This document shows positions 841 through 64,000 of a stretch of 64,000 bases of DNA, piece after piece. This stretch comes from Acidimicrobiales bacterium. Lineage in GTDB: Bacteria > Actinomycetota > Acidimicrobiia > Acidimicrobiales > Poriferisodalaceae. The stretch covers positions 870,939-934,938 of the forward strand of contig OZ220497.1 of NCBI GenBank assembly GCA_965116245.1, read 5' to 3'. The translations under genes were made by a program, and so were the position numbers. Below the pieces are notes generated by a model. That model was not told where the DNA came from and did no database searches. It was given only the letters and a program-made list of their open reading frames with translations. Positions within the stretch are counted from its first letter, which is position 1. Every line of letters begins with the position of its first letter.

Positions 841-902
841 AAGACGTGTAGCCAAGACGTGTAGCCAAGACGTATAGCCAAGACCACCTAGCCAAGACCA
901 CC
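841..902. repeat. tandem array of 13-14-nt units, about 4.7 copies (aagacgtgtagcc)
   Basis: Read directly: aagacgtgtagcc x2, aagacgtatagcc, aagaccacctagcc, aagaccacc. Confidence 0.9.
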
Positions 903-993
903 GGAAAGATTACCGGCGCTCCGGGCGCGGCGCGCGATGTTCTAGCACGACAGCTCACGTCTGCCACCTCCGCACGACTGAGTTGCCCCGCAG

Positions 994-1027
994 CATGGTC
1001 AGCAACATGGTCAGCAACATGGTCGGC
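994..1027. repeat. tandem array of a 12-nt unit, about 2.8 copies (catggtcagcaa)
   Basis: Read directly in the divergent intergenic region 798..1197. Confidence 0.9.
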
Positions 1028-1112
1028 TTGGAGGGTCATCGCGAAGGTGGCCAGCCGACGACCGCGTGGCAAACTTGCGCCTCGGCGCGCTTGAGCGCGT
1101 ATCGTGCCCTGC

Positions 1113-1144
1113 GAAGTTGATCGAAGAAGTTGATCGAAGCTGAT
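1113..1144. repeat. tandem array of a 13-nt unit, about 2.5 copies (gaagttgatcgaa)
   Basis: Read directly, about 55 nt upstream of the cytochrome c start. Confidence 0.9.
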
Positions 1145-1197
1145 TTTTGTCCCGGCCCCGTGCCGCAACCCCTGGGGGCAACCCCGCGGAGGATCAC

Positions 1198-3196: not shown

Positions 3197-3202
3197 GCGG
3201 CA

Positions 3203-3221
3203 GTCCCGAAGTCCCGAAGTC
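3203..3221. repeat. tandem 8-nt unit, about 2.4 copies (gtcccgaa)
   Basis: Read directly at the hemL stop codon. Confidence 0.8.
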
Positions 3222-7845: not shown

Positions 7846-8799
7846 TCATGTCCCGACATTTGAGACAGCAGTTTCTTGCAGGCTGGCGTGACCGGCTTCG
7901 CGAGCCAGGCGGATCTCGGTGCCGGGCAACAGGCCGAGATGGGCAGCGCTGCGACCCGCGACTGTCAGCTCAAGCAGCCCGAAGGGATCGTCGCTCAAGG
8001 CAAGACCAGTGGTGCCAGCAGCTCCCGCTGGAGCTAGCTGAACCAACCGAGTCGCCGCTTCTGGAGCATGTGAGCCAACCGCATCCGCTGTCCATTCCGC
8101 AAGCAGAACATCACCGAGCGGCTCCAAGAGTTCACGGTTGATGTTGAGTTGCACCGTTCCCCAACGCGTCACCGATAGCACTTCCGCGGTCACGCAACCA
8201 TCATCCGCTACTCGCGGCACCGCAACCAGCGATGGCATCAACAACGCTGGATCAATCGGCGTGCCTAGCGACTCAATGGTCTCGCCCGCCGCTAGCCGGC
8301 CCGCTGCGGGAGCAAGCACATCGCGCGACGGATGCGCTACAGACTGTGGATCCACAGACTGTGAATCTCCAGACTGTGAATCTCCAGTGTCTGGATCCTG
8401 GCTGCTTTCTATCGCGATGCGGACTGCGGTATCCGCGCCGCCCACTGCAGCCGTGGCGGCCGCCAGCACCCCGTTGTCGGGACCCACCAGCATCGATTGA
8501 CCGTCACCGACCGATACTGCAATAGCGGGCCTGTCCAAGCGGCGCCCCACTGACACGAGCACAACGCCGGGTGCGAGGTGAGGCACGCTGCGAACCAACA
8601 TCAGCGCCGCCGTCCGGGTATCTCCCGGATCGATCTCGTGGCACAAGTCAATAACCGAAGCACTTGGAGCAATCTGACGCAGGACCGAGTGAATGACCCC
8701 CACAGACTCGTCCGCTGTACCCAGATCACTCAAGCAGGTGACTGTGTTGAAGCCGTTGATTTGCCTTTGTGAGGGCTCATCTGTTAGAGACTTGCGCAT
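7846..8799 (-). CDS. SAM hydroxide adenosyltransferase / DUF62 (chlorinase-fluorinase-like) family protein
   Basis: LSDLGTADESVGVIHSVL...LVGPDNGVL resembles the DUF62 TDFG...YVG...PDNG pattern. The start is uncertain (track ORF extends to 8841). It contains an in-frame 15-nt repeat insertion. Confidence 0.65.
   Translation of the reverse strand: MRKSLTDEPSQRQINGFNTVTCLSDLGTADESVGVIHSVLRQIAPSASVIDLCHEIDPGDTRTAALMLVRSVPHLAPGVVLVSVGRRLDRPAIAVSVGDGQSMLVGPDNGVLAAATAAVGGADTAVRIAIESSQDPDTGDSQSGDSQSVDPQSVAHPSRDVLAPAAGRLAAGETIESLGTPIDPALLMPSLVAVPRVADDGCVTAEVLSVTRWGTVQLNINRELLEPLGDVLLAEWTADAVGSHAPEAATRLVQLAPAGAAGTTGLALSDDPFGLLELTVAGRSAAHLGLLPGTEIRLAREAGHASLQETAVSNVGT
8340..8398. repeat. in-frame tandem 15-nt units, about 4 copies (cagactgtgaatctc)
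   Basis: Read directly. Encodes DSQSGDSQSVDPQSV inside the DUF62 protein. Confidence 0.9.
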
Positions 8800-9973: not shown

Positions 9974-10010
9974 GCTGGACCGCACAAGTAGCTGGACCGC
10001 ACAAGCTGGA
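9974..10010. repeat. tandem 17/14-nt unit, about 2.4 copies (gctggaccgcacaag)
   Basis: Read directly in the 350-nt gap upstream of proC. Confidence 0.85.
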
Positions 10011-10086: not shown

Positions 10087-10626
10087 CTAGTTGGCTGCTG
10101 GGTTTGCTGATGGGACAGTCTGCTGCTGGAAGCCCAGCCGGAGCAGCGTCACGAAGTCCCGCTCTATGTATGACCAGAGCGATCCGATGATCCGATCAAG
10201 TTCGTCTTCGTCTACGCAGTGAGTTGGCAACTCCCCAGTCAAGTACAGGGCATCTTCGGGGCCGATGCCGTACTGGGCACCTACCAGCGAGTAGTTGCGG
10301 CGCAACACGAATTTGGCCACCTGATGTGGTTGGTGGTGCGGCGTTGGGAGCACATAGGACTCATAGGCCAATGTGCGCTGACGCAATGTCAACCAGACGG
10401 CGATCACGTCGCGGGACTCGCCAGCTAGGCGGACGTACCAACGTCGCGGCACCTCGGTGTCACGGGTCACATCAAGTAGCAGCGGACGTTCAGACAAGTC
10501 AGGTTCAGACAAGCCAGATTCAGACAATCCAGTGTGAGCCTGTGCGCGAGCCCAGCCAGCCAACCAGTCGTCCACGCGAGCCTCAAGTTGAACCAGCTCG
10601 GTTTCGGTCGCGGGGCGGCGGGTCAC
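10087..10626 (-). CDS. YbjN-like protein (counterpart of the conserved gene that follows mshA in mycobacteria)
   Basis: 179 aa, located immediately downstream of mshA. The family assignment is from memory of this synteny. Contains the in-frame repeat GLSESGLSEPDLSE. Confidence 0.55.
   Translation of the reverse strand: MTRRPATETELVQLEARVDDWLAGWARAQAHTGLSESGLSEPDLSERPLLLDVTRDTEVPRRWYVRLAGESRDVIAVWLTLRQRTLAYESYVLPTPHHQPHQVAKFVLRRNYSLVGAQYGIGPEDALYLTGELPTHCVDEDELDRIIGSLWSYIERDFVTLLRLGFQQQTVPSANPAAN
10489..10533. repeat. in-frame tandem 15-nt units x3 (ttcagacaagtcagg)
   Basis: Read directly. Confidence 0.9.
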
Positions 10627-10650: not shown

Positions 10651-12144
10651 TCACACGCAAGCAATCAGGTCGCGGCGAGCCGCGGCCTGCAACACTTTGA
10701 GCGCTGTGACTGCGCTCGCGCGCCAACTGAAACGTTCCGCGCGCCTAGAACCAGCATCGCCGAGTCGCAGCGCCAACAGCGGATCAGCGAGAATCTCAAT
10801 CACGCGGCCAGCAAAAGCGGCTCCGTCGCGGCCAACTACTAGGTAGCCCGTACGTCCGTCAACGACGTTGTCTCGCAGACCACCCACATCGGACGACACG
10901 ACTGGCGTCCCACACGCTGCGGCTTCAAGCGCAACCAGTCCGAATGACTCCGACCTACTTGGAACCAGGCACACGTCGGCTGCCCGGTAGTAGGTCGACA
11001 ACAGGTGATGCGGAAGTGGGTCCACGAACCGCACGTGGCGAGCAACCGCGAGCTCGTCGGCCATTTCTTTCAATCGGTTCAGTGTGGCCTGGCCGTCGGG
11101 GCCGCTGGGACCTCCAACGATGACCAGTTGAGCATTGGCGCCCACTGCGGCGGCGGCTCGGGTGGCAGCGAGAGTCTCAATGGCTAGCTCGGCCCCCTTG
11201 AGAGGTTGCAGGCGACCCACAAAGAGCAGCATCGGGCCCGCAGGTAGCCCGATCGCCGAGCGAGCCGCGTGACGCTGACCCGGCGCAAAGATGGCCCGGT
11301 CCACGCCCGGGGTCAACACATGGAGTCGCTCCGGGGGAGCGCCGTACAGCGACCTAAGTTGCAGCGCTTCAGCGTCGCCCGAGGTGAACACGGTGTCGGC
11401 GCAGTCAATGACCCGCTGCTCCGCCGCAACGCGATGACGCGGCTCGGCATCGCCAGCGTTGGTTTTGACACGTCCCAACGTGTGAAACGTGACGGCCAAA
11501 GGCACACCCAAGTGGTGTTTCAGTTCGTGCCCCGCTACACCGCTCAGCCAGTAATGGGCATGGATGGCGTCAACCGGTCGGCGTGCCAGGTGCTCGCCTA
11601 CGTTGTCAGCAAATGTGGATATGACCGCCGGTAGGTCCTCTTTGTGCAGCGAGGGCGCACCGGCGTCTACCTGGGTCACGCTTACCCCAGATTCAATTTC
11701 GATGGTGGCCGGCCCATTGTGAGTTGACCCATTTCTGGAGGGCTTAATGTCAGCCGCCCCGATGTCGATGGGCATTGGGCTGAACGGCCCCATATCAGCC
11801 GGGCCTACACGGGATTGCCCCACGGTGGAGGGTTTGATGCTGGCGGTAGCGGGCTCGCCGAACCGTGATGTGTCGCCAACCTGCGACAGCCCAGCCTTAG
11901 ACAACCCGGAGTTCGATATCCCGGCTTCTGAGATACCGGTTTCTGAGATACCGGCTTTTGGGGGCCCAGCTTCTGGGGGCCCAGATTTTGGGGGTCCAGC
12001 GCGGCGCGTGTAGATGTCGCAGTCAACACCGAGATGTGCCAGAGCGGTAGTGAGTTCGCGTACGTAGACGTTTAGACCGCCACCGTCGCCGCTGCCTGGT
12101 TGTTGCACCGGCGAGGTGTGCATACACAAGACCGCAACCCTCAC
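10651..12144 (-). CDS. mshA: D-inositol-3-phosphate glycosyltransferase (mycothiol biosynthesis), with a ~115-aa low-complexity insertion
   Basis: Contains MRVAVLCMHTSPVQQPGSGDGGGLNVYVREL... and a GT4 C-terminal domain (VPSRSESFGLVALEAAACGTPVV). Confidence 0.85.
   Translation of the reverse strand: MRVAVLCMHTSPVQQPGSGDGGGLNVYVRELTTALAHLGVDCDIYTRRAGPPKSGPPEAGPPKAGISETGISEAGISNSGLSKAGLSQVGDTSRFGEPATASIKPSTVGQSRVGPADMGPFSPMPIDIGAADIKPSRNGSTHNGPATIEIESGVSVTQVDAGAPSLHKEDLPAVISTFADNVGEHLARRPVDAIHAHYWLSGVAGHELKHHLGVPLAVTFHTLGRVKTNAGDAEPRHRVAAEQRVIDCADTVFTSGDAEALQLRSLYGAPPERLHVLTPGVDRAIFAPGQRHAARSAIGLPAGPMLLFVGRLQPLKGAELAIETLAATRAAAAVGANAQLVIVGGPSGPDGQATLNRLKEMADELAVARHVRFVDPLPHHLLSTYYRAADVCLVPSRSESFGLVALEAAACGTPVVSSDVGGLRDNVVDGRTGYLVVGRDGAAFAGRVIEILADPLLALRLGDAGSRRAERFSWRASAVTALKVLQAAARRDLIACV
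11891..11995. repeat. in-frame tandem 15-nt units x7 inside mshA
   Basis: Units include ccggcttctgagata / ccggtttctgagata / ccggcttttgggggc / ccagcttctgggggc. Together they encode GPPKSGPPEAGPPKAGISETGISEAGISNSGLSKAGLS. Confidence 0.9.
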
Positions 12145-12317
12145 AGCGCGACTCCCGTCGAAAGCGCGACGCAGATAGACGGACTATGCGACACGCCAGG
12201 AGTCACAGCAGGAGCCACGGACGGTAACGCTACGCAGAACGTTGAAGCGCCGCTAAGTCGTCGCGACAGTGAGCAAACCGACCGTGCGCTCAAGACCATG
12301 CGCTCTTGACCATACGT

Positions 12318-13463
12318 TCATACAGATACGAGCCCCAGGCCCCACATCCAAACCAAGGCTGTAACACTTAGCGAGTCCAGCCTGCGAACAGCCCATTCCC
12401 GCCTCGCTCGCTGCCAAGCGCCCTGGCTCCCGCCGACATCCGACGAGGCCACATCGCGGTCATCGGCTTGAGCCGTTCGCTTCGGCCCCGACTCATTCGA
12501 CCCATGCTGATTTGACCGAGACTGAGTTGACCCAGACTGAGTTGATCCATGGGCAAGCCGAGATGTCTTGCGCGCAGCCAGTGCCGTGTTCGATCGGGCC
12601 GTAGCTGGGCCTAGCGGCAACGTCAGTACAGCGATCGCTCCGAATCTGACAACATCACTGGGCACGAACGGCGGCACGCTCAAACCAGTCAAGGCGAGAA
12701 TGACAGTCGCCGCTGCGACTCCTCCGGCCAGCGGACCGCGCAGGCCTGGAGGCTGACCCGCTGCGCTTAGGTGGGAACCAGCGTCGTAGGCAGAAGCCGC
12801 GCACACGAGCACGAGCGCTGCGCCGAGCGAGTATTTGGCAATCGCCGCCAAGCACGCAGCCGTAACCCCGACCTGCATCCATGCACGAATCAACAAGTAC
12901 CCACGAACGATGCCTGCCGCCGCGGGTATTTCGAATCTGGGCGCGGCAATCCGGCGCACTCCTACTCGGGACACAGGCGCTTGGCGTGCTTTAGGCGCCG
13001 AGGACGTATGGGAGTGTGGTGGTTGCAAAGCACTCGACACCAGGACGCTCACGGCGATGGATGCGCCGATTACCGCACCGGCCAAACGGGTGTCCAGCAC
13101 ACCGGCGCATCCGATTGCACCCGCCAGCACAGCCGCTGGCGCACGGTAACTCGCAGGCAGGACTGGCCTTGCGGGTGCCGCTTCCTCAGCCGAAACTTCG
13201 GCAGCCGATGATCGGGGCCCTAACAATCTGGGCGCAGGGCCGCTACAAGTCACGCCCACGGATTGCCATGCTGCGATCATGGCAATCGCCGTCATGGTGA
13301 GTCCAAACGTTTCAGCACCGGCCCGCAGGGCGCCGATCTGCACAACAAACCAGATGAGTCCTGCACTGATGCTGGCGTCGCGCAGCGCTACGCCAGGACC
13401 AAGCCACCACACAACTGAGTAGATGCGCGGCCGCGCCAGCCCGAGACCGGGCGCCGCTTTCAC
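12318..13463 (-). CDS. polytopic membrane protein, function unknown
   Basis: 381 aa with many Ala/Gly/Leu-rich helices. An in-frame repeat (GSTQSGSTQSRSNQHGSNESG) lies near the C-terminus. Confidence 0.55.
   Translation of the reverse strand: MKAAPGLGLARPRIYSVVWWLGPGVALRDASISAGLIWFVVQIGALRAGAETFGLTMTAIAMIAAWQSVGVTCSGPAPRLLGPRSSAAEVSAEEAAPARPVLPASYRAPAAVLAGAIGCAGVLDTRLAGAVIGASIAVSVLVSSALQPPHSHTSSAPKARQAPVSRVGVRRIAAPRFEIPAAAGIVRGYLLIRAWMQVGVTAACLAAIAKYSLGAALVLVCAASAYDAGSHLSAAGQPPGLRGPLAGGVAAATVILALTGLSVPPFVPSDVVRFGAIAVLTLPLGPATARSNTALAARKTSRLAHGSTQSGSTQSRSNQHGSNESGPKRTAQADDRDVASSDVGGSQGAWQRARREWAVRRLDSLSVTALVWMWGLGLVSV
12512..12548. repeat. in-frame tandem 15-nt units, about 2.5 copies (ttgaccgagactgag)
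   Basis: Read directly. Confidence 0.85.
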
Positions 13464-13771: not shown

Positions 13772-14521
13772 GTGACACGACGTGACGAGTTAGTGGATGA
13801 TGAGTTGAGGGATACAGCGTTGCTGGCGCTGCGACACGGCCAGTCCGAATGGAACCTACGAGGAATTTGGCAAGGGCAGGCCGACCCGGACCTGACTGCT
13901 CTGGGCGAACGGCAGGCAGAAATCGCAGCCGACGCCTTGGCAACCAAGCTCGCTGGCGCGGACGCTGGCTGGCGGACACGTACGTCACGTCCTAGCCATC
14001 TCCAGCCTGATCTGCCCAAATCTGATGTGCCCACATTTGATCTACCCACATTTGATCTAATTGTGGCCAGCGACCTGCAGCGCGCACGCCGGACCGCTGA
14101 GATCATTGCCAAACGGTTCGGCGGCGATGTCGTGACCGATGAAGCGTTACGTGAGCGCAGCGCGGGACCGTGGGAGGGCCTTACCAGGGCTCAGATTGAG
14201 AACCGCTGGCCGGGCGCTATTGCATCGCGTAGATGGCCGTCGGGTTTTGAGTCGGAAGACAGGGTGGCCGCGCGACTGTTGCCCGCGCTACGCAAGCACT
14301 TGTCTGTTTGCGGTCGTGTGCTGCTGGTAAGTCACGGCGGAGTGCTCAAGACCATTGACGCCATGCTGGGCCTCGGCAACCAGAGGGTGCCGAAGAATCT
14401 GGCGGGCCGCTGGTATTGGCTTGAAGGCGTTGCGGCCGACGCAACATGGAGTTGGAATCAACTAGAACCCCGCGACCGAGTTGAGCTGGTGCCCTCCGAT
14501 ATCGATCCCACAATGGAATAG
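13772..14521 (+). CDS. histidine phosphatase (phosphoglycerate-mutase-like) family protein
   Basis: Has the LALRHGQSEWN catalytic RHG motif and a later SHGGVL. GTG 13772 was chosen as the start. Contains an in-frame repeat insertion. Confidence 0.8.
   Translation: MTRRDELVDDELRDTALLALRHGQSEWNLRGIWQGQADPDLTALGERQAEIAADALATKLAGADAGWRTRTSRPSHLQPDLPKSDVPTFDLPTFDLIVASDLQRARRTAEIIAKRFGGDVVTDEALRERSAGPWEGLTRAQIENRWPGAIASRRWPSGFESEDRVAARLLPALRKHLSVCGRVLLVSHGGVLKTIDAMLGLGNQRVPKNLAGRWYWLEGVAADATWSWNQLEPRDRVELVPSDIDPTME
14008..14060. repeat. in-frame tandem 15-nt units, about 3.5 copies (tgatctacccacatt)
   Basis: Encodes DLPKSDVPTFDLPTFDL. Confidence 0.9.
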
Positions 14522-14602
14522 CCAGCCATCTTCACCCGATGGCCGCGGAATTGAGCTGCCCTCTCCCCAAAAAAGGGGTTAGCCCGGGTCGATGGGCCAG
14601 GC

Positions 14603-14630
14603 TCGGTTAGCCAGCGTCGGTTAGCCAGGC
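14603..14630. repeat. tandem 14-nt unit x2 (tcggttagccagcg)
   Basis: Read directly. The repeat supplies the stop codon of the small ORF below. Confidence 0.85.
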
Positions 14631-14786
14631 CGTGGCGACTCGTGGATCCATTTCGTCGTCGGCCAGCAAACTGAGAGTGCGCTCTGCTCTTGCTAGTTCA
14701 TCCTCAATGGCATCTAGCTCGTCGTCGTCCAGCTCATCGGGTGTGAGCAGTTGAGGCTCAGACACAGCGGCGCCGGGCAACGACAT
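14607..14786 (-). CDS. possible 59-aa acidic helical protein
   Basis: MSLPGAAVSEPQLLTPDELDDDELDAIEDELARAERTL... No family recognised. Confidence 0.3.
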   Translation of the reverse strand: MSLPGAAVSEPQLLTPDELDDDELDAIEDELARAERTLSLLADDEMDPRVATAWLTDAG

Positions 14787-14931
14787 GGGAGCGTTTTCGG
14801 ACACTCTCGCGAGGCTAGGTGCGTTGCGCCTCCTCGGAGTCTGAGAACTCCATGGCTGGGGGCCAGAAGCGGGACGGCGCCCGAGATTCGCCACCGGACG
14901 CTCGGACCGCAGCAGGCGAACCCGACGCCGA

Positions 14932-15912
14932 TCACCCGAAGCCAAGGTATGAGGGCACCGGAGCTACGACATCGGCGGTCTCAGCGACCACCATCCACGG
15001 TCCAAAGAACCCCACGAACGCGGCGGTTGGGGCGTACCCGATCGCCGCGAACAAGCGAGCTGGCTGCTGCAGCCCTGCGGGCAGCCGGGCTGCCCCGCGC
15101 TCAATGAACGACCGGCCTGCCCCGTTCACCGCTTCAGAGTGAAGGACCAAAGTGTAGAAACTCGCGTAGGTCGCGACGAACACCATCTCGAATAACGGGA
15201 ATTGGAACTGGCTGCCAGCATTGAGCGTCAGCACCTGCCAGCTGCGCGGATAGGAGTAGATCTCGAGCCCGATGAATGACCACTCCACGACGAGGTCAAT
15301 GAGACACAAGACGGCGAACGTCGGAACCATCGCCCGAGCGAACGACCATGAGGGATTCCGGCGCCGCAGCCATCGAATACCGGCGAGTTGTAACGATCCG
15401 AGACCGATGCCTAGATACAGATATTGCGACGGCGCCCAGAACAGACCCTCTGCGAACCGGGTCGGCCCGTTGTGGCCAGGAACGTATCCGGCCCACGCCC
15501 CGAGGTTGATGGCGTGGTGGCTCCACGCAAACGCATACTCCGAGTAGTTGATCATGGTGTCGATCGGATACGCCAGCAACCCGCCAACCACCAACATGCC
15601 GGACAGAGTCAATCGACCCGCTGCTCGCCACGGCAGATATAGGTAGCGATAGAACGTCCAGACGATCAGGACGATGCTGATGAACTCAATTAGCCGGAGC
15701 GCCGCCACCTTGTAGGGGTTGATCTCGTCGGGCCCAGCGATCGGCATCGGCGCGAATGCTTCACTGTCTGCGACCCACCGTCCTAGCACATACGCAACGA
15801 GTACAATCCAGATCACGCCGAGCATTGACCAGGCCAGCGACCCCGAGCTGGCAGATCGCGCTTGGTCCCTACTGGTTGGGACGCGCTCTCTCGTGGCAGT
15901 CGCGGGTGTCAT
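14932..15912 (-). CDS. AveC-family (spirocyclase/DUF5135-like) integral membrane protein
   Basis: AYVLGRWVADSE, LGAWAGYVPGH, QFQFPLFEM and IERGAARLP line up with my recollection of Streptomyces AveC (AYVFSRWAADGG, SWGPYVPGW, WYQFPVYQ, VERGAWRLP). Start chosen at ATG 15912. Confidence 0.6.
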   Translation of the reverse strand: MTPATATRERVPTSRDQARSASSGSLAWSMLGVIWIVLVAYVLGRWVADSEAFAPMPIAGPDEINPYKVAALRLIEFISIVLIVWTFYRYLYLPWRAAGRLTLSGMLVVGGLLAYPIDTMINYSEYAFAWSHHAINLGAWAGYVPGHNGPTRFAEGLFWAPSQYLYLGIGLGSLQLAGIRWLRRRNPSWSFARAMVPTFAVLCLIDLVVEWSFIGLEIYSYPRSWQVLTLNAGSQFQFPLFEMVFVATYASFYTLVLHSEAVNGAGRSFIERGAARLPAGLQQPARLFAAIGYAPTAAFVGFFGPWMVVAETADVVAPVPSYLGFG

Positions 15913-16318
15913 GGCATCATCTCCGTGCAGCCGGACTCGGTCCGCAGGCTCGGTCCGGAGGTCGCTCACCCACGCAACGCTAGCCGTGTCGCATTCCGAA
16001 ATCAAGCGATGTATGGTTCCGGACGAGGCCCCGGACCACGGTCACTCTGATCGGCGCTATCCGGACCCGGCCGCGGCAGCTCATCGGTCGCGCGACCGGA
16101 AGCGCTCGTCGGCTTACCAGTGAGAGCGTGCTCTCAACTGGTCCGGCGCATGGTCCAGCGCGGAGCGGCGTTCACCCAGTCTCGGGATCCAACGCACCGG
16201 GCGCCGAGCCCTCGCGAACGTCTGGACGCGTGGCGCCCACCGGTACTGCGGCTGCTCTGGCGAACAGTAATTGATCAGTGTTAGTTTATCGCTGCCGCTG
16301 ACCGCCGAGGAGATCACC

Positions 16319-17131
16319 ATGGAAATCAGCTCGTTCCCTCAGCCCCCCGTGGGCATGGAGATGAACACCACCTGGCAGGCGGTATTCACCATCGGTCAGG
16401 CGATCCCGGCCGCGATCATGATCATCATCGCGGTGCTGATGCTGCGACGGTACGGCACTCCAATCCCGCTGTTGTGCCTGGTGGGCGGCGCCGTGGCGAT
16501 CCTCATCGAACCCATTGTCGATGTACTCGGCCTGGTGTGGTTTCCCCGCGAGGGTCAGTGGGTGCTCTTAGAGGCCTTCGGCCGGCCCCTCCCGGTCTTC
16601 CTGATCGTCTACGTGTGGTTCGTCGGCGGCCAGACGTTCCTGGTCTGGCACCGGATGGAGCGAGGCGTCACGACGCGAGGGATATGGCTCATGTACCTCG
16701 CCTTCACCATCATCAACATCCCGACCGAGACACCAGGTCTCTACATGGACCTCTACGCCTACTACGGAGCGCAGCCGTTCACTCCCTTCCGTCTGCCCTT
16801 GATGTGGCCCATCGTGAATGCGCTGATGCCCCTCGCCGCCGCGACCGCCATCTACCGGTTGCGGCCTTACCTCCATGGCTGGCGGATCATCGGGGTTGTC
16901 GCGCTCGTGCCGATGGTTGACGGCACCGTCAACATCGCGACCGCGTTCCCGCTGTACATCACGCTGAACACGAACCTCGGCTTCAAGGCCACTTACCCCG
17001 CCTTCTTCGTCATGCTCGCGCTCGCATTGTTGGTGGTGAAGATCATCACCATCGCCGTAGCGACCGACACCGAGCAACCAGAACGCTCCGCAGTCACCCA
17101 CGACCGCCAGGCCGCGGTGGCCGACGGATAG
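16319..17131 (+). CDS. polytopic membrane protein (possibly distantly AveC-related)
   Basis: ATG 16319 is preceded by GAGGAG. About 7 hydrophobic helices. Confidence 0.55.
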   Translation: MEISSFPQPPVGMEMNTTWQAVFTIGQAIPAAIMIIIAVLMLRRYGTPIPLLCLVGGAVAILIEPIVDVLGLVWFPREGQWVLLEAFGRPLPVFLIVYVWFVGGQTFLVWHRMERGVTTRGIWLMYLAFTIINIPTETPGLYMDLYAYYGAQPFTPFRLPLMWPIVNALMPLAAATAIYRLRPYLHGWRIIGVVALVPMVDGTVNIATAFPLYITLNTNLGFKATYPAFFVMLALALLVVKIITIAVATDTEQPERSAVTHDRQAAVADG

Positions 17132-17287
17132 GCATCGGCGGACCTCAGACGTCGCGCTCACGGTCCACCCACGAGAGGGGATCGTGGGCACGTGGGGCTG
17201 CCTCACTAAATCGCGATCAGAGCTACGTCGTGGCGTAGGAAAGCGCTTTGGCGGGCCGATCGGGGAGGCTTCCCCGACAGATGAGTA

Positions 17288-18091
17288 TCAGCTCCACGAC
17301 TCGCCTTTCGCGGCGTCGGCCTCAGTGTCGGACAGGTAGCCGGTCCGGCGATTCGAGAGGAAGTCGCCTCGGCGTTCTGCGGCTTCGCCAAGCAGATTGA
17401 GTTCGTAGGTGTAGCTGAGTTCGGCGCGGTACCGAGTTCTGATCTCGGCCAACCCGGCTGATCCGTTCAGCGCCCGCTTCAGGCGCCTCACCACAATTGG
17501 CGATTTGTTCGCGATCGTCTGGGCCAGGACCATCGCCTCGTCGCGCAGCGACGACTCATCGACCAGCCGGTAGACGCTCCCGTGTGCTTGAAGCTCCTCG
17601 GCGCTGAAGGGCTCAGCGGTCAGCATCGCGGCGCGCAATCGCTTCTCCGGCAACAAGGCCACGGCCTGAACCCCACCGCTGGTCGCGCCGTTGTCCACCT
17701 CGGCCAGGACGAAGCGTGTGTCGTAGGCGGCAACGATAATGTCGCACATCGCGACGATCAAGACGCCGACGCCGATACAGTACCCGTGGACTGCGGCGAT
17801 GACCGGGACGGCGCATTCGGCTGCCGCGAGGCTGGCTTCTTGTGATCCGCTGGCTTGGCCAAGAATGCCGTCGTGGCTCGACAACGCATGTACTTCCTTT
17901 ACATCGCCGCCACCGCAGAACCCCTTCCCCTCTGCACGCAGCAGTACGGCGCAGACATCGGGTCGGCGTTGGACCCCAGCGAGCCGTTCGGCGAGATCGT
18001 GCAAATCGGCGATACAGAATGCGTTGACGGGTGGGTGCTTGATCACGAGTTCGAGTACACCGTCGGGATGGTGGTGCTCTGTAATCGTCAT
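17288..18091 (-). CDS. enoyl-CoA hydratase/isomerase (crotonase) family protein
   Basis: Contains VLELVIKHPPVNAF...VLLRAEGKGFCGGGDVKE. ATG 18091 is preceded by GAGG. Confidence 0.85.
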   Translation of the reverse strand: MTITEHHHPDGVLELVIKHPPVNAFCIADLHDLAERLAGVQRRPDVCAVLLRAEGKGFCGGGDVKEVHALSSHDGILGQASGSQEASLAAAECAVPVIAAVHGYCIGVGVLIVAMCDIIVAAYDTRFVLAEVDNGATSGGVQAVALLPEKRLRAAMLTAEPFSAEELQAHGSVYRLVDESSLRDEAMVLAQTIANKSPIVVRRLKRALNGSAGLAEIRTRYRAELSYTYELNLLGEAAERRGDFLSNRRTGYLSDTEADAAKGESWS

Positions 18092-18280
18092 GGTTACCTC
18101 ACAGCGGGATCGAACAGTGGCGGACACGGTGGGGAGTCGCTTGTCAACGGAAACACACGGCTCCCGCTGGTGACTGTCGCAAGACACTAGTCAGCTCGCC
18201 ATTGCATAACCAAACATCGTTTGTTAACTTGTTGCCAGACCGGTTCGACACGCGGCCGGCCGGACGTTCGGGAGCCGGAC

Positions 18281-19327: not shown

Positions 19328-19359
19328 CGGGCAAGTCAAACGAGCCGGACGGGGACACA

Positions 19360-21117: not shown

Positions 21118-21129
21118 CCCGGCGGCCAG

Positions 21130-35712: not shown

Positions 35713-35720
35713 GTTTACGA

Positions 35721-41209: not shown

Positions 41210-41250
41210 GCGCGCCAGCGACCGCTTGGGATCCGGCCACGCGGCATGGT

Positions 41251-44590: not shown

Positions 44591-44824
44591 CTCCCCCCTG
44601 TCCCACCGCCTCGGCCCTCTCTGGCGGGGTCGGCGTATCCCAACGCCAGTTGATTACCAACGACAGACCTCGCCAGCGGGGCACGCCCGCAGGCGAGCAC
44701 TCCCTCCCAACGGCCTGCCGCGCTGCGTGTTCGGAAGGCTACTTGATAATCTAGCAGTGTTAGGCAACTATGGTCTCATTGTCGGAGGTGAAAGTCGCCT
44801 CCACGAGCATCTAGGGAGAAGACC

Positions 44825-46108: not shown

Positions 46109-46235
46109 GTTCAACCAGCGTGGAACTGCTCCGCTTGCTTGAACTCGGCGGGCTTAGAAGTACGGCGGCGTTAGTAGCCTCCGCCAGAGTGTCGATGCGT
46201 CTTGAATGCCGATACGCCGGATCGGCGAAGCAATG

Positions 46236-46295
46236 TCGGCAAAGTTCGGGTCGGCAGACGTCGGGCCGGCGGAGGCTGGGTCGGCGGAATTTGGG
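46236..46295. repeat. tandem 15-nt units x4 (tcggcNNNNNNtNggg) running into tRNA-Lys
   Basis: Units are tcggcaaagttcggg / tcggcagacgtcggg / ccggcggaggctggg / tcggcggaatttggg. The last ggg is tRNA bases 1-3. Confidence 0.85.
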
Positions 46296-46368
46296 CCGCT
46301 AGCTCATCGGGTAGAGCAGGGGACTTTTAATCCCAAGGTGCCGGGTTCGAGTCCCGGGCGGCCTACCA
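46293..46368 (+). tRNA. tRNA-Lys (anticodon UUU)
   Basis: I folded the cloverleaf by hand. The acceptor stem is GGGCCGC/GCGGCCU, the D arm is GCUC..GAGC, the anticodon loop is CUUUUAA, the T arm is CCGGG-UUCGAGU-CCCGG, and CCA is encoded. Confidence 0.9.
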
Positions 46369-46934: not shown

Positions 46935-47318
46935 ATGACCAAGACCCCCATGGCACCTCCACAGTCACTTCGGCCCGGTCGGCCAAAGAAAGCACAACTC
47001 ACCTTGTTTGATATCCCCGAGTTTGATGTCCCTGCATCGCTTGAGGGCCCCCGTTACGCAAAGAGCCCAAGCTCGCCTAACGTCACTAGTCCAAAGTTTG
47101 AGGGGCCAAAGTTTGAGGGGCCACAGTTCGAAGCCGTACGGGCTCGGAGGCACCGCTCCCTGGCACGGCTAGCCAAGCGCCGCTACCTCGCAGATTCCGA
47201 GAGCTATTTGCGTATTGAGCAGGTCCGCAGTTCCCTTCGCCTCGTCATCAGCCAAACGGGCCAAGTTGACACAGGGCAACTCGGCACGGAACGACGCGGT
47301 ACGGGGCAAGCCGACTAA
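46935..47318 (+). CDS. hypothetical basic protein with in-frame repeat
   Basis: No family recognised. Contains SPKFEGPKFEGPQFE. Confidence 0.4.
   Translation: MTKTPMAPPQSLRPGRPKKAQLTLFDIPEFDVPASLEGPRYAKSPSSPNVTSPKFEGPKFEGPQFEAVRARRHRSLARLAKRRYLADSESYLRIEQVRSSLRLVISQTGQVDTGQLGTERRGTGQAD
47091..47135. repeat. in-frame tandem 15-nt units x3 (ccaaagtttgagggg)
   Basis: Read directly. Confidence 0.9.
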
Positions 47319-51347: not shown

Positions 51348-52091
51348 ATGAGAAATGCGTCGAGTTCACGCTTGCGAGCGCGGCTGGCGGGTTGGCGAGG
51401 CTGGCTGTTTGCACTGTTAGGCCTCTATGCGCTCGGTGCCGCGGCATTCTTGATAGCGGAGGGCCTAATCGCGGACGACAGTCCCGCGGCAAACGCCTCG
51501 GCGACCCAGGCGCCAACCGAGCTAGCCGACGTAGCAAGCGGCCAGCCGAACACGGGGGCCCAGCCGAACACTGAGATCCAGTCGAACACAGGAGCATCGT
51601 CTGCCACCAGAGTGGATGAGCAAGCCGCCACAGCGACCGCGTGCAACGACGTTGACCCCGCCGCTCACAGCGTCGACCCAAGCCTCAACGGGGTGCATGG
51701 CCTAGGTTTCGTGACGCTCGACGAGCAACCCGCTGGCTTCTCCGGCTATGACGGATGTCCGCTCATCGTGAACTTCTTCGCTTCCTGGTGCGTACCTTGC
51801 GTGACCGAAATGCCCGACTTCGAGCGTTTTTGGCAATCTCACGGAGCGAACATTGCGGTACTGGGCCTAGCCGCCAATGATCGACTCTCTGATGCGATAG
51901 CAACAGTGGAAGAACGCGGTGTGAGCTACCCCACCGGTCTCGACGAAGGCGAGCTGTTTATTGACTTTGGCGGTCTCGGCATGCCCACAACAGTCTTCGT
52001 CTCCCGGCAGGGCGAAATACTGGAAACCCACAGCGGACTGCTCACCCTTGACAACATCACCGACCGGGCACGTAAGCACTTCGGCCTATGA
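51348..52091 (+). CDS. TlpA/ResA-like thiol:disulfide oxidoreductase (membrane-anchored thioredoxin fold)
   Basis: Has a WCVPC active site and an N-terminal TM helix. Contains the in-frame 18-nt repeat GQPNTGAQPNTEIQSNTGA. Confidence 0.85.
   Translation: MRNASSSRLRARLAGWRGWLFALLGLYALGAAAFLIAEGLIADDSPAANASATQAPTELADVASGQPNTGAQPNTEIQSNTGASSATRVDEQAATATACNDVDPAAHSVDPSLNGVHGLGFVTLDEQPAGFSGYDGCPLIVNFFASWCVPCVTEMPDFERFWQSHGANIAVLGLAANDRLSDAIATVEERGVSYPTGLDEGELFIDFGGLGMPTTVFVSRQGEILETHSGLLTLDNITDRARKHFGL
51541..51594. repeat. in-frame tandem 18-nt units x3
   Basis: gccagccgaacacggggg / cccagccgaacactgaga / tccagtcgaacacaggag. Confidence 0.85.
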
Positions 52092-52097
52092 ACGAAC

Positions 52098-52187
52098 GCC
52101 GTAAGAACCAACACCGTATGAGCCAAGACCGTATGGGCCAAGACCGTATGAGCCAGAACTGCATGAGCCAGAACCGTAGAAGACCGC
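52098..52187. repeat. intergenic tandem 15-nt units x6 (accgtatgagccaag)
   Basis: Read directly. It fills most of the tlpA-ccdA spacer. Confidence 0.9.
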
Positions 52188-60933: not shown

Positions 60934-60968
60934 CAGGTCGTTCTCCTAGGCCCACATGCCAGCGCTCA

Positions 60969-62132
60969 TCAGGGCAGCACCGGCGGGCTGCCGAGGGTCT
61001 TCAGGTACTCCATCAAGTTGTCAAGGTCTTCATCGGTTAGGACCTCAGAGAAGCCGAGCATGCCCTGCTGGTTGTCCGCACGAGCAGGTTTCATGTCGGG
61101 CGCGTTGCGCACCCATTCCCGCATTTCGGCCACGTTCGGCACTAGCCGCCCGTCAGACCCGCGCAGGTACTCGCCATCGGGTCCAGTGAGGTAGGTCTCG
61201 AACATCGCTCCAGCGAAGGCCGTGCGGCTCATCAGGTTGGTGAGGTTTGGAGCGATACCTGCGAGCAGTGCCGCGTTGCCTCCGGCGGCACTTTCGTAGG
61301 ACCCGTCCACCACGTGGCAACTGATGCAGTGGGTCTCAAACAAGTCAGCACCAGCAGCTTGCGCGGTGCCCTCAGCCGGTGCCGTGCGGACTGCTGCTTG
61401 ACCATCTAGTTGTTCTTGCACCCAACGCTCAAAGTCTCCGGGAGCGAGAGCTATGGCTCGCATTTGCATGTTGGCGTGGCTCAGACCACAGAATTCCACG
61501 CATTCTCCATAGAAGACGCCCGGTTCGTCGGAGCTGATCCGCCAATGGTGAACCCGCCCCGGCACGGCGTCTCGTTTGCCGTTTAGTTGGGGTATCCAAA
61601 ATGAGTGGATGACGTCGTTGGAGTGAATCTCAAGGTTGACTTCTTCACCGGTCGGAATGACCAGGTCATTCGCGGTGACGATGTCGTACTGTCCGTCTTC
61701 GTCTAGGTCGTAGCTGAACTGCCACCACCATTGTTGACCCTCGACCTTGATGGTGCGGCCGTCCCCGTCGGAGGCGAGAGCGAACACAGTCGGGAGCGTG
61801 ACGACTGTTAGGAACACCAGCATGGCTGTGGGGATAAGTGTCCAAGTCAGCTCGGCTTTGCGATTGCCATGTATCTGCGGCGGCAGATCGTCGGGGTCAT
61901 CTGTGGGTCGAGCCCGGAACTTCACGATGATCGTGATTACGGCGGCCGCTACGAACACGCCCACAGCGACTGCCATCCAGCCTGACAGCCGCATGAGCCC
62001 GTCAATATCGCGGGCGTTGGGTCCGGCGGGTCGGGTGGCGTCCAGGCGGCCGGTGGCGCAGCCAGCAGCTACTAGTCCCGCCAAGGCCGCGAATACGACG
62101 CGGCAGCTTCGGGCACTGCGAGCGCCGATCAT
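60969..62132 (-). CDS. ctaC: cytochrome c oxidase subunit II fused to a cytochrome c domain (caa3 type)
   Basis: Has the CuA site HSFWIP...CVEFCGLSHANM, a C-terminal CISCH haem c motif and a lipoprotein-like signal. Confidence 0.9.
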   Translation of the reverse strand: MIGARSARSCRVVFAALAGLVAAGCATGRLDATRPAGPNARDIDGLMRLSGWMAVAVGVFVAAAVITIIVKFRARPTDDPDDLPPQIHGNRKAELTWTLIPTAMLVFLTVVTLPTVFALASDGDGRTIKVEGQQWWWQFSYDLDEDGQYDIVTANDLVIPTGEEVNLEIHSNDVIHSFWIPQLNGKRDAVPGRVHHWRISSDEPGVFYGECVEFCGLSHANMQMRAIALAPGDFERWVQEQLDGQAAVRTAPAEGTAQAAGADLFETHCISCHVVDGSYESAAGGNAALLAGIAPNLTNLMSRTAFAGAMFETYLTGPDGEYLRGSDGRLVPNVAEMREWVRNAPDMKPARADNQQGMLGFSEVLTDEDLDNLMEYLKTLGSPPVLP

Positions 62133-62908
62133 TCGTGCCCTCCGTCGGTATCGCTTGGCGTGCCTGACTCGTCGCCGTGATCGTGCGCGTGGTCACCTGA
62201 CACCTCGGCGTGTCCCGGTTGGTGGAACTCACGCTCGCCTATCGCAGCCGACGTGATGCCAGCCACGATCAGAGCGACGCCTCCCAGTACCAGCACCGAT
62301 GCAGTGACAGCGCGGCGCAGGAGCGGTTTCGAATAGAGCACAAACGCGAATGCCAAAATTGCCGCTGAGATAGCAAGCGCCGCGTAGCTCGCCGCGGTCT
62401 TGCTGACCGTCAGGAAGATTCGAGAGGCAAGTACTACTGGAACGGCAATGCCTAATGCGCCGTAGAGCGCGATTTCAAAGGGGCGTAGCAGCCTTGCTCG
62501 CTCAACCGCATTCGACGCAACATCGGTAGACAGATGCTCCGCCCATGCGCTCATCGTCCATTCGATAGCGGAGATCACCAACAAGGCGATACCCGCGATG
62601 GCCAGAAGCGCGTCGGTTACCAAGCCCACCATGAGCACGCCGAGGCCGACTGCGGCCATGATTGGCCAGTAAGCCGGGGTTGGGCTGTGCTGATATGAGT
62701 GCTCCCGATCCAGCGAGTCGCCGTCGCCCACGGTGAGCGCCAGCGCAAACAGCAAGGCAAACGCGCCTGCGGCAACGCCCAGCACGATCGTGGCGTACAT
62801 AGCCACGTGACCTGTGCCGTCCATGCCGGTGAGCAGGCCAATAGCCATAGCGGCCGCTGCTGCCAGTGCGATGCGCCCGGCGAAGTATCTGCTGGCAATG
62901 CCGACCAT
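62129..62908 (-). CDS. polytopic membrane protein with an actinobacterial CtaF-like motif
   Basis: SPTPAYWPIMAAVGLGVL resembles mycobacterial CtaF SPHSWWPIMVAL. It overlaps the ctaC start by 4 nt. Confidence 0.5.
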   Translation of the reverse strand: MVGIASRYFAGRIALAAAAAMAIGLLTGMDGTGHVAMYATIVLGVAAGAFALLFALALTVGDGDSLDREHSYQHSPTPAYWPIMAAVGLGVLMVGLVTDALLAIAGIALLVISAIEWTMSAWAEHLSTDVASNAVERARLLRPFEIALYGALGIAVPVVLASRIFLTVSKTAASYAALAISAAILAFAFVLYSKPLLRRAVTASVLVLGGVALIVAGITSAAIGEREFHQPGHAEVSGDHAHDHGDESGTPSDTDGGHE

Positions 62909-62914
62909 TGATTC

Positions 62915-63583
62915 CTACTTCACCACGTAGACGACGTACCAGGTGGCAGCCCAAGCAAGCACACCGAAATCCCAGAAGAAAACCGCTGCGCCTAGCGGTG
63001 TTGAACGATCTCGACCTACGCTGCCGCCCAGCGATCGTAGGGTCATGAGACCTAGGTAGAACATGCCGACGATCAAAATCGCCAGGGATAGCCCCGTAAC
63101 GGCGAACGCCAACGTTGCCCATTCTCCAGAACCGATCTCAAGCTCCATGCGGTTCAGACTGAACATCACCATGTTGAAAAACGCCAGGCCCAAGACCAAG
63201 GTGAGTGCCATACCTACCCATGTGTGACCGCGCTCGTCGCGACCACTTGCCCACACAGCCCAATGGGCCGTCACGACTGACAACAGCAAGGTAATGAGCG
63301 CGTAGACAAGTTGGGGATTTGGCACTGAGTGTGAAGCGAGCCACTCATGGCCAGGGTCTGCGCCGGACCCGTGCCGACGCGCCATGTAGTGACCCAGCGC
63401 TCCCGCGACAGCCATAGCGCCCGCAGCAATAGCAAAACCGGTGCCAACAAGCTGGCTGCGGGGACGCGGCGGCGGGCCCGGAACGTGGTAGCGGTCTGGC
63501 GCATACGCCTGCATAGCAACACCTACGGTTGCGGCGCCGACAGGGCCAGCATCTACTGCCGTACTCGTGGTGTCCGCCATCAC
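62915..63583 (-). CDS. haem-copper oxidase subunit III-like protein (second copy)
   Basis: The C-terminus AVFFWDFGVLAWAATWYVVYV parallels the subunit III YWHFVDVVW region. Confidence 0.6.
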   Translation of the reverse strand: MMADTTSTAVDAGPVGAATVGVAMQAYAPDRYHVPGPPPRPRSQLVGTGFAIAAGAMAVAGALGHYMARRHGSGADPGHEWLASHSVPNPQLVYALITLLLSVVTAHWAVWASGRDERGHTWVGMALTLVLGLAFFNMVMFSLNRMELEIGSGEWATLAFAVTGLSLAILIVGMFYLGLMTLRSLGGSVGRDRSTPLGAAVFFWDFGVLAWAATWYVVYVVK

Positions 63584-64000
63584 GCCAGTACCTTTGCCGA
63601 GTCGTCCGCTTCTGAAGACCTACTTGCTGAAGATCCAGTTTCTGAAGATCCAGATTCAGAAGACTCAGAAGTCAGCAGGGGTGTTCCCGAGGAAAGCATG
63701 GCCAGGGAATCGGCTACGCCTATCGGCGGTGGCGACGGCAATAGCCATTCTGGTGTCAGAGCACCCCACGGATCCGCGTCGGTTTGAGCGCCCCTGCGCC
63801 GCACCACACCAACCACCAAATTCGCCACCATGACCGCCATGCCTGCCAGCACCAACACGACGCCTATAGCGGAGACGATTGACAACCCCTCAGCAACCGA
63901 TGCTCCAGTTGAATCAACCTCGCTGACATAGCGAGTGGTGAGCAATGGTTCGACGTAAACGAACTGGGGCTGCTCGGTCAGCATGCCCGACAGTGTGGAC
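63580..64000 (-). CDS. C-terminal part of a second subunit I-like protein (5' end beyond the window)
   Basis: The frame stays open to position 64000. DADPWGALTPEWLLPSPPP parallels ctaD DADPWDGRTLEWAIPSPTP. Ser/Glu-rich repeat tail. Confidence 0.6.
   Translation of the reverse strand, partial: STLSGMLTEQPQFVYVEPLLTTRYVSEVDSTGASVAEGLSIVSAIGVVLVLAGMAVMVANLVVGVVRRRGAQTDADPWGALTPEWLLPSPPPIGVADSLAMLSSGTPLLTSESSESGSSETGSSASRSSEADDSAKVLA
63608..63670. repeat. in-frame tandem 15-nt units, about 4 copies (gtttctgaagatcca)
   Basis: Encodes SESSESGSSETGSSASRSSE. Confidence 0.85.

Follow-up and report, generated by a model that had tools for sequence, protein, structure and literature searches.

Short tandem arrays, often with a 15-nt unit, pervade the native genes and spacers of a 64-kb stretch (the window) of one genome, from which the native and island densities given here are taken. 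They are probably minisatellites born locally, by microhomology-mediated tandem duplication followed by slippage expansion, and filtered by selection in one sponge-symbiotic lineage. The source is a Candidatus Poriferisodalis-like sponge symbiont of the Acidimicrobiia with a chromosome of ~2.9 Mb (2,897,933 bp), whose MshA is 76–83% identical to those of Ca. Poriferisodalis spp. The collections searched yielded no second genome, contig or read data for this species. The window was compared with 24 congeners, and arrays were also counted in 80 diverse control loci.

A Tandem Repeats Finder (TRF) scan of the whole window, with 30 dinucleotide-preserving shuffles as the null, returned 50 rows against 14.9 expected. 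The excess is larger for rows scoring at least 50 (26 versus 0.43) and for rows with a period of 15 or 30 (16 versus 0.3). Nine arrays of ~4 or more units emerged from a stricter lag-autocorrelation scan, eight of them with period 15, all in the flanks and none in a central acquired island, and 20 shuffles gave none. Head-to-tail direct copies at constant period thus exceed chance in both scans. A preliminary description had listed at least 20 arrays by eye; TRF recovers every array named there, and the list was incomplete, having overlooked arrays at 12280 (14 nt) and 44987 (15 nt).

Array density reaches 4.9 per 10 kb in native DNA, compared with 0.96 in the 80 control loci (maximum 3.4) and 1.3 in the island, and multi-copy arrays are ~20-fold more abundant in the window than in the 24 congeners. 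The density is therefore unusual, as first supposed, yet similar values (4–6.6 arrays per 10 kb) occur in L026–L028, which are small-genome Poriferisodalaceae. Counts are raised, too, in two long-branch congeners, L014 and L018 (7 and 5 arrays per 21 kb), so the window is the extreme end of a continuum, and its contrast with relatives is one of degree. Of the 16 native arrays, 9 have period 15, compared with 12 of the 92 control arrays, whose unit-length spectrum is flat across 12–24 nt; two of the three long intergenic arrays also have 15-nt units. In-frame minisatellites of recent origin occur in roughly one of every three native genes of this region, and the coding arrays in native DNA are these:

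8340..8387, minus strand: 15-nt × 3.2, in-frame, in the SAM hydroxide adenosyltransferase (DUF62) gene 7846-8841
10488..10532, minus strand: 15-nt × 3, in-frame, GLSE units, in the YbjN-like gene 10087-10626
11728..12000, minus strand: mshA minisatellite, 273 nt (91 aa), ~18 units of 15 nt, in-frame, in gene 10651-12144
12499..12549, minus strand: 15-nt × 3.4, in-frame, GSTQS units, +20 aa, in the membrane protein gene 12318-13463
14008..14059, plus strand: 15-nt × 3.5, in-frame, in the histidine phosphatase gene 13655-14521
47091..47128, plus strand: 15-nt × 2.5, PKFEG units, in the unconserved ORF 46929-47318
51542..51594, plus strand: 18-nt × 2.9, in-frame, QPNTGA units, in the TlpA/redoxin-like gene 51348-52091
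63610..63671, minus strand: 15-nt × ~4, in-frame, ESGSS units, in a cytochrome oxidase subunit I-like gene

The DUF62 insertion adds 15 residues through duplication of the ancestral DPQSV unit (GATCCnCAATCnGTG), and the YbjN-like protein gains ~10 residues that congeners lack. In the histidine phosphatase, an ancestral two-unit proto-repeat, FDLPA/FDLIV (TTCGACCTGCCCGCA/TTCGACCTCATCGTG), has expanded by five residues. The TlpA-like array lies in a hypervariable linker, and the ESGSS array forms the C-terminal tail of the subunit I-like protein, whose gene runs beyond the window edge. The mshA array had been described as seven units and is in fact much longer, with a lag-15 autocorrelation of 0.52 over its 273 nt against a baseline of ~0.24; the TRF match spans 11921-12000. 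Its product is inserted between IYTRR and the following strand. This position maps onto a loop of Corynebacterium glutamicum MshA (3C4Q), in keeping with the expectation that such inserts fall in loops, and in an AlphaFold2 model the insert has pLDDT <50 and no secondary structure, while the remaining fold exceeds 90. The MshA insert is thus predicted to sit in a disordered loop. No Pfam repeat family is matched by the array peptides and, given also the low pLDDT of the MshA insert, structural repeat proteins such as pentapeptide repeats were rejected.

The insertions in the DUF62, YbjN-like, MshA, membrane and histidine phosphatase proteins are absent at the orthologous sites of 24 congeners, and the same loops hold independent inserts in L018 and L026–L028. 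By these comparisons, the coding arrays are in-frame insertions specific to the lineage, and they fall in variable loops, linkers, and disordered or hypervariable segments. Periods divisible by three are found in all nine coding arrays of the window (eight of 15 nt and one of 18 nt, as the preliminary description had reported) and in three of nine non-coding arrays (Fisher p=0.0045). Together with units copied from local sequence, this difference agrees with the original proposal of duplication or slippage filtered for reading frame. Since all nine coding arrays have 15- or 18-nt units, phase-variable contingency loci were rejected as an explanation. The intergenic arrays include a wider range of unit lengths:

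830..902: 13/14-nt, ~5 units (GACGTGTAGCCAA), divergent intergenic region
990..1024: 12-nt × 2.9 (GCAACATGGTCA), intergenic
1112..1144: 13-nt × 2.1, perfect duplication, intergenic
3202..3221: 8-nt × 2.5, perfect duplication, between convergent genes
9974..10005: 17-nt × 1.9, perfect duplication, intergenic
12280..12313: 14-nt × 2.4, immediately 3' of the stop codon of gene 12318-13463
14577..14630: 14-nt × 3.8
46235..46295: 15-nt × ~4, intergenic, abutting the 5' end of tRNA-Lys
52087..52178: 15-nt × 6, filling the TlpA–CcdA spacer

Spacers have lengthened at two of these sites: the one holding the 9974 array measures 351 nt (relatives' median 134 nt), and the TlpA–CcdA spacer 130 nt (median 78 nt). 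The 14577 array is a ~4-fold copy of ancestral AGCGAGCCAGGCCG, a sequence that takes in the stop codon of a small ORF on the minus strand. TRF also identifies perfect two-copy, young duplications at 875, 1113, 3202 and 9974, and the duplication process may still be running. A C16 tract at 51182 is the sole repeat in the window that resembles a contingency repeat.

Comparison with orthologous DNA identifies the units as copies of local ancestral sequence at DUF62, histidine phosphatase, 14577 and 35721, the four arrays at which local origin is readable. Microhomology arms are expected to leave partial terminal copies (bioRxiv 10.64898/2026.02.28.708716; PMC8639346). A partial extra end copy of at least 2 nt is present in 17 of 20 arrays, a count in which decayed units of old arrays would look alike, and 35721, where the pre-duplication state is known, has no obvious microhomology arm. 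About half of the private protein insertions lack clear tandem structure.

The island interrupts the native sequence, and its landmarks are:

~14730..46280: acquired island, ~31.5 kb, boundaries approximate
35721..35767: tandem duplication, 18-nt + 11-nt, inside the island
44987..45027, plus strand: PAEED array, 15-nt × 2.7, in the lipoprotein linker of a LivK-like protein, inside the island
46293..46368, plus strand: tRNA-Lys (UUU), at the island's right edge

The island encodes P450s, CoA-transferases, amine oxidases, PEP-utilising enzymes, a TetR regulator and a Liv-type ABC transporter. Between the histidine phosphatase gene and a dUTPase-like gene (46452-46889) there are 31,930 nt here, where 17 congeners have a median of 472 nt. 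GC3 is 0.77 in the island and 0.67 in native genes, and the right 11.5 kb (34,661-46,151) is 91–93% identical at the nucleotide level to a Ca. Poriferisocius contig; this comparison covers that right-hand part of the island. Proteins of the right region are 92–95% identical to those of Ca. Poriferisocius, and the repeat-bearing LivK-like protein 83%. The island is thus shown to be foreign and absent from the syntenic site in relatives. No island ORF contains an integrase domain, and it is the 5' side of tRNA-Lys, not the 3' end of the tRNA gene, that borders the island.

Arrays had been thought to be confined to the two flanks. Depletion of the island is supported, its 31.5 kb holding 4 arrays and the 32.5 kb of flank 16 (p=0.007), but the island is less empty than described, containing the 44987 array as well as 35721. 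The PAEED array was inherited along with the island, and the homologues P0133/P0134 have longer versions of it. The 35721 tandem, once read as operator-like, has an extra 29 nt that the 93%-identical Ca. Poriferisocius copy lacks; it is a new duplication that arose within the island, not an operator. The suggestion that arrays separate native from acquired DNA holds in so far as GC3, synteny and sequence identity all mark the island as foreign. Because one new duplication is already present there, however, the arrays are better likened to a clock than to an absolute label. A rough rate of duplication per kb per unit divergence is similar in island and native DNA, so the emptiness of the island reflects recent arrival and says nothing further on mechanism.

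The alternative that survives best, although we consider it unlikely, is drift alone, in which duplications arise at an ordinary rate and a small host-restricted population fails to purge slightly harmful insertions. Native-gene GC3 in the window (0.67, against 0.78–0.83 for orthologues in relatives) and the smaller chromosome (2.9 Mb, where complete congener chromosomes span 2.8–4.7 Mb) fit relaxed selection. The other array-richer genomes (L014, L018 and L026–L028) are likewise long-branch or small, and the coding arrays are all located where their cost should be minimal. Drift should also fix deletions, yet private protein indels in the window lineage comprise 15 insertions and 3 deletions (roughly 5:1), whereas L014 and L018, the other two long-branch congeners, together have 8 and 11. 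Private substitutions are similar in number to those of L018 (158 versus 137), but inserted residues are ~8 times more numerous. The narrow unit lengths, against the flat spectrum of controls, point to a property of mutational input. We infer that the excess reflects raised or skewed input and not merely weak selection, possibly caused by faulty Okazaki-fragment or flap processing.

Selection for function, with the repeats serving as linkers or host-interaction motifs and the intergenic arrays as binding sites (operators or iterons), is very improbable. Some arrays do occupy promoter-like spacers (830-1144, 46235 and 35721), the repeat peptides are polar and linker-like, and homologues of the LivK-like lipoprotein keep its PAEED linker as a repeat. 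Nevertheless, unrelated units occur across unrelated cytoplasmic enzymes, membrane proteins and spacers, the 24 congeners have the same genes without arrays, and the 52087 array merely lengthens an intra-operon spacer. The predicted disorder of the MshA insert, the lack of a Pfam repeat family and the lack of the 35721 tandem in the donor-like copy also argue against function. An origin as copies or footprints of a small mobile element with sequence specificity, or as target-site duplications, can be dismissed almost entirely: CCAG/AGAC-like words seemed at first look to recur on the plus strand of many units whatever the gene strand, and CAAGACC is found in four arrays, but no k-mer (k=4–7, stranded or not) exceeds matched random segments (best P 0.06), units are recognisable as local ancestral sequence, and copy numbers of 3–18 are incompatible with target-site duplications. 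Dispersed mobile mini-repeats of the REP/MITE/MIRU type, whose copies at different loci would share a consensus, were rejected on the same k-mer result.

Under the preferred reading of local duplication and slippage, the process would copy 8–18 nt of any native sequence present, with a mode of 13–15 nt. Selection would purge coding DNA of all but in-frame units (15 nt, occasionally 18) in disordered loops, linkers and tails, and intergenic DNA would retain every unit length. Arrays would accumulate in a host-dependent lineage while native GC3 drifted from ~0.80 to 0.67, towards AT. The catabolic 31-kb island would have been imported later from a Candidatus Poriferisocius-like donor, with time for one new duplication. 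A more speculative and rather doubtful extension is that the window lineage and, independently, the ~2-Mb L026–L028 carry a heritable mutator-like signature of ~15-nt duplication, for which defective removal of flaps or RNA primers as Okazaki fragments mature would be a candidate cause.

Slippage-type tandem duplication is textbook; the density, the sharp 15-nt mode and the ~5:1 insertion bias are unusual. Housekeeping proteins of Plasmodium falciparum carry low-complexity, slippage-born, hydrophilic inserts in surface loops, and there, as here, lineage-specific loop inserts interrupt otherwise conserved enzymes and their composition follows mutational bias. Plasmodium is an extremely AT-rich eukaryote in whose repeats trinucleotide or homopolymeric Asn/Lys runs predominate, whereas the window has a discrete 15-nt unit. 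Ehrlichia ruminantium, reportedly with tandem repeats of actively variable copy number, is likewise a symbiont or pathogen in which continual repeat creation reshapes spacers and genes. Its repeats are said to be mostly intergenic and tens to hundreds of nt long, with demonstrated strain-to-strain variation, while those of the window have units of ~15 nt, are often coding and are known from one genome. Contingency loci share slippage-prone tandem repeats, but their 1–8-nt units shift the frame or promoter spacing of surface, restriction-modification and virulence genes, whereas the coding arrays here are in frame, lie in metabolic and respiratory genes and are unable to switch genes off.

Mycobacterium leprae and Burkholderia are examples of host-dependent, repeat-enriched bacteria. 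Long simple sequence repeats are reported to correlate with dependence on eukaryotic hosts (PMC4060949, citing Mrazek et al. 2007). Such SSRs/VNTRs resemble the window in their excess in a genome-eroding, host-associated lineage and in lying both between genes and in frame; they differ in having units of 1–11 nt, where those of the window are 12–18 nt, and in lying mainly in pseudogenes, spacers and surface-protein genes, where the window arrays lie in intact housekeeping genes. Microhomology-mediated tandem duplications (MTDs) are likewise head-to-tail copies of local single-copy sequence, with a partial extra end copy, growth from two copies to many and scarcer out-of-frame events in coding DNA (PMC8639346; bioRxiv 10.64898/2026.02.28.708716). 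A link of MTDs to Okazaki-fragment maturation has been proposed through rad27 (same sources). Unlike MTDs, the events in the window are numerous, have become fixed and cluster in a single lineage, and they combine a narrow 13–15-nt mode with insertion-biased indels.

The genus Candidatus Poriferisodalis has no mention in the literature searched and, as far as those searches show, sponge-symbiotic Acidimicrobiia represent a new phylum and habitat for the repeat-rich pattern. For annotators, long "unique" inserts in such MAG proteins are real sequence and not assembly errors. If the mutator reading were true, these bacteria would be a natural counterpart of yeast rad27 mutants, their micro-insertion bias would oppose the usual bacterial deletion bias despite a shrinking genome, and unit length would reflect a physical dimension of the replication machinery. 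If the pattern is genome-wide, it would provide a natural system for what sets the rate and length of bacterial tandem duplication, a practical internal clock for resident versus recently imported DNA in sponge-symbiont genomes, and a view of early symbiont erosion, with disordered loops growing in proteins as the genome contracts.

Short tandem micro-duplications, reported in the preliminary description from reading by eye, are confirmed as a feature of the window. Tandem Repeats Finder (TRF) returns 50 rows where 14.9 are expected from 30 dinucleotide-preserving shuffles; by the same standard, 26 rows score at least 50 (0.43 per shuffle) and 16 have a period of 15 or 30 (0.3 per shuffle). 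Every array named earlier is recovered, and two that had been missed are added:

12280, array with a 14-nt unit
44987, array with a 15-nt unit, inside the island (the acquired block at about 14.7-46.2 kb)

A lag-autocorrelation scan, which is independent of TRF and requires about four units, finds nine arrays, eight of them of period 15. All nine lie in the native flanks and none in the island, and 20 shuffles yield none.

The suggested comparison of coding with non-coding unit lengths separates the two classes. All nine coding arrays are in frame with their enclosing ORFs (eight with 15-nt units, one with 18-nt units), so that 9/9 have a period that is a multiple of three, against 3/9 non-coding arrays (Fisher p=0.0045). 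Non-coding units span 8-17 nt with a mean of about 13, and the two longest intergenic arrays have 15-nt units. The arrays at 875, 1113, 3202, 9974 and 47091 are perfect. A terminal partial copy of at least 2 nt is present in 17 of 20 arrays, the pattern expected from microhomology-mediated tandem duplication, which decayed terminal units could mimic.

Comparison with 10-kb flanks around mshA in 24 congeners, with which synteny is kept for window positions 0-14.6 kb and 46.3-53.9 kb, identifies the arrays in protein alignments as insertions private to the window lineage:

7846-8841, DUF62 protein, +15 aa
10087-10626, YbjN-like protein, about +10 aa
10651-12144, MshA, +91 aa
12318-13463, membrane protein, +20 aa
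13655-14521, histidine phosphatase, +5 aa

The MshA insertion, first counted as seven units, is periodic over its full 273 nt (identity 0.52, 0.46 and 0.40 at lags of 15, 30 and 45, over a baseline of about 0.24) and comprises about 18 units, those at one end sharp and those at the opposite end decayed. At three sites, array units are DNA-level copies of sequence already present locally in the ancestor. In relatives, GATCCnCAATCnGTG matches the DUF62 unit; the histidine phosphatase array is an expansion of a two-unit proto-repeat found in all congeners; and the array at 14577 is a four-fold copy of AGCGAGCCAGGCCG, a stretch that takes in the stop codon of a small ORF on the minus strand. In the private insertions that remain (LLGPRSSAA, VGVRRIAAPRFEIPAAAG, LVDDELRDTA and others), lag signals of tandem structure are only weak.

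No k-mer is significantly common to the arrays when they are set against random native segments, so the arrays are not a dispersed element. AT skew is higher in the arrays (+0.18 vs +0.05). A shared strand-specific motif (CCAG/AGAC/CAAGACC on the + strand), with a link to primase sites, had good-looking uncorrected p-values and was rejected by random-segment controls. Unit-age polarity within arrays is uninformative about replication direction. On the coding strand, the older unit in DUF62 and the histidine phosphatase, and the more decayed units in MshA, lie at the 3' (C-terminal) end; because the genes lie on opposite chromosome strands, this gradient follows the gene and not the chromosome.

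The protein sites are predicted to be structurally permissive. The GT4 glycosyltransferase encoded at 10651-12144 resembles MshA, and among solved structures that of Corynebacterium glutamicum MshA (3C4Q/3C48) is closest. The insert separates strands two and three of the N-terminal Rossmann domain, at a short loop in 3C4Q. An AlphaFold2 model built with 46 homologues gives the fold a pLDDT above 90 and residues 58-140 a pLDDT below 50 with no secondary structure, so that mapping onto a predicted structure places the insert in a putative loop, as had been anticipated. At the DUF62 and YbjN-like sites, both of them loops, related loci L018, L026-L028 and L043 bear unrelated inserts of their own. 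The TlpA-like array lies within a hypervariable linker after the membrane anchor, and the 63610 array in the C-terminal tail of a subunit I-like oxidase gene. Intergenic arrays make spacers longer: the one separating the pyrroline-5-carboxylate reductase-like (ProC) and YbjN-like genes measures 351 nt (median 134 nt in relatives), and the TlpA-CcdA one 130 nt (median 78 nt). An Rfam search of the window finds a tRNA alone.

The spacer upstream of the TlpA-like gene holds a perfect C16 homopolymer (51182-51197) flanked by CCTG...CAGG, and no related locus has a homopolymer of at least 9 nt at the matching place. This tract could be a phase-variable promoter element or a length error of long-read assembly. 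The oxidase cluster (58185-64000) contains two COX3-like genes, at 58185-59018 and 62915-63583. Its second subunit I-like gene, with a tail at 63580, is listed as a 134-aa ORF; the frame is open to base 63999 and the gene extends past the window end.

Density was measured as TRF arrays scoring at least 45, with a period of 6-40, per 10 kb. Native DNA of the window reaches 4.9 and the island 1.27, whereas the controls, 80 diverse loci that surround proC in metagenomes (956 kb), reach 0.96 overall; for control loci of at least 10 kb the median is 0.70 and the highest value 3.4. The native excess over these controls is significant (p=5e-7), and strict multi-copy arrays are about 20-fold denser than in congeners (9 per 32.5 kb vs 7 per ~495 kb, p=1e-7). 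Period 15 accounts for 9/16 native arrays against 12/92 control arrays (p=4e-4), among which 12, 15, 18, 21 and 24 nt are about equally frequent. Private protein indels in the same genes comprise 15 insertions (206 aa) and 3 deletions in the window lineage, compared with 4:6 and 4:5 in the related loci L014 and L018 (p=0.011); private substitutions are similar in number (158 in the window lineage, 137 in L018). The relaxed recount of 15:3 excludes an ORF at 48387-48797 (-), which is still within the stricter count. This 136-aa ORF aligns to relatives only as a Cys/His/Arg-rich translation of erratic length, and it is probably no gene but a spurious frame.

The high density is a matter of degree and not exclusive to the window lineage. 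Three Poriferisodalaceae (L026-L028) with ~2-Mb chromosomes and 55-62% GC carry, over the corresponding region, 3.8-6.6 arrays per 10 kb; many have 15-nt units and some are perfect. Perfect multi-copy arrays in relatives suggest very recent expansions:

L028 11952-12123, 24-nt unit, 7.2 copies
L026 18432-18544, 36-nt unit, 3.1 copies
L004 7325-7457, 7-nt unit, ~19 copies

The L004 array occupies the same spacer, between a dUTPase-like gene and a tRNA, as the window's 46235 array.

The window MshA shares 76-83% identity with proteins from Candidatus Poriferisodalis spp., sponge-associated members of the Acidimicrobiia. Its exact sequence occurs once in a 15-billion-protein collection, on a 2,897,933-bp contig; complete congener chromosomes measure 2.8-4.7 Mb and mostly at least 3.4 Mb. 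Native genes (0-14.6 and 46.3-64 kb) have a GC3 of 0.67, lower than the 0.78-0.83 of their orthologues in ten congeners. The 2.9-Mb chromosome and low GC3 therefore place the lineage below most congeners in size and drifting towards AT; GC is 55% in the arrays and 62% in the flanks. Exact-protein look-ups with four window proteins found no second representative of the species in the collections searched, the MshA sequence cluster has a single member, and a metagenome scan with the ProC-like protein found nothing closer than 81%. Literature searches found no mention of Poriferisodalis and, in general searches, no prior description of such a tandem-duplication pattern.

The separation of native from acquired DNA holds. 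The gap between the histidine phosphatase and dUTPase-like (46452-46889) genes is 31,930 nt long; across 17 congeners its median length is 472 nt. The island within it is located 5' of tRNA-Lys and has a GC3 of 0.77 (native genes 0.67). It encodes a TetR regulator and a Liv-type ABC transporter alongside P450s, amine oxidases, family III CoA-transferases and PEP-utilising enzymes, and it yielded no integrase. Window positions 34661-46151 are collinear with positions 1-11404 of L067, which comes from a 3.57-Mb Candidatus Poriferisocius contig, at 91-93% nucleotide identity over 11.5 kb (amine oxidase, SCP2-like protein, P450, DUF7065/7064 protein, PEP-utilising enzyme, LivHMGF-K). Nine of the ten proteins compared in this block are 92-95% identical, and the repeat-bearing LivK-like protein 83%, whereas native proteins reach only ~80% even to the nearest genus; the best 120 matches to the window MshA include none from that Poriferisocius contig. 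Together with the gap and GC3, this high identity shows that the island was horizontally acquired, and the block is evidence that two genera of sponge symbionts have recently exchanged genes.

The reported near-absence of arrays from the island stands as a lower density (1.27 vs 4.9), but not as exclusion, since the 44987 and 35721 arrays lie within it. The 44987 PAEED linker repeat arrived with the island and is longer in homologues. The 35721 tandem, described earlier as operator-like, includes 29 nt missing from the Poriferisocius copy and is a new post-arrival duplication rather than an ancestral operator. At ~8% divergence, one new event in 11.5 kb roughly matches the native rate when both are scaled by divergence, so the island is nearly empty because it arrived recently. 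L067 has its own 18-nt tandem duplication at the start of its LivK-like gene (~9999-10035, MFQWKA/MFKWTR) and 7-8 PAEED-type units against three in the window; micro-duplication and copy-number change therefore occur in Poriferisocius too. A small ORF at 14607-14945 (-) is kept in congeners between the histidine phosphatase gene and tRNA-Lys. Its homology to relatives ends at ~14727, so its N-terminal half may be cut off or replaced at the island junction.

The best-supported mechanism is local tandem duplication followed by slippage expansion of the duplicated unit, with selection then screening the products for reading frame and for what the structure tolerates. The slippage or duplication process proposed earlier, filtered by reading frame, agrees with units that are local copies and coding arrays that are all in frame. 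A preprint (bioRxiv 10.64898/2026.02.28.708716) argues that the tandem duplication process is universal and shows that it rises when the flap endonuclease Rad27 is lost (see also PMC8639346). Long repeats are known to go together with reliance on eukaryotic hosts (PMC4060949). Three features, namely the excess over relatives, the bias towards insertions and the narrow length mode, which extends to non-coding DNA, are read as pointing to a lineage-specific skew in mutational input atop weak purifying selection in a host-dependent population. That primer or flap length sets unit length is offered as a hypothesis only. With the corrections made here, the preliminary interpretation is essentially right. 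The mechanism class is already known. What makes the case noteworthy, as a variant rather than a new kind of element, is its density, unit-length mode and bias towards insertions in a sponge-symbiont genome that is shrinking.
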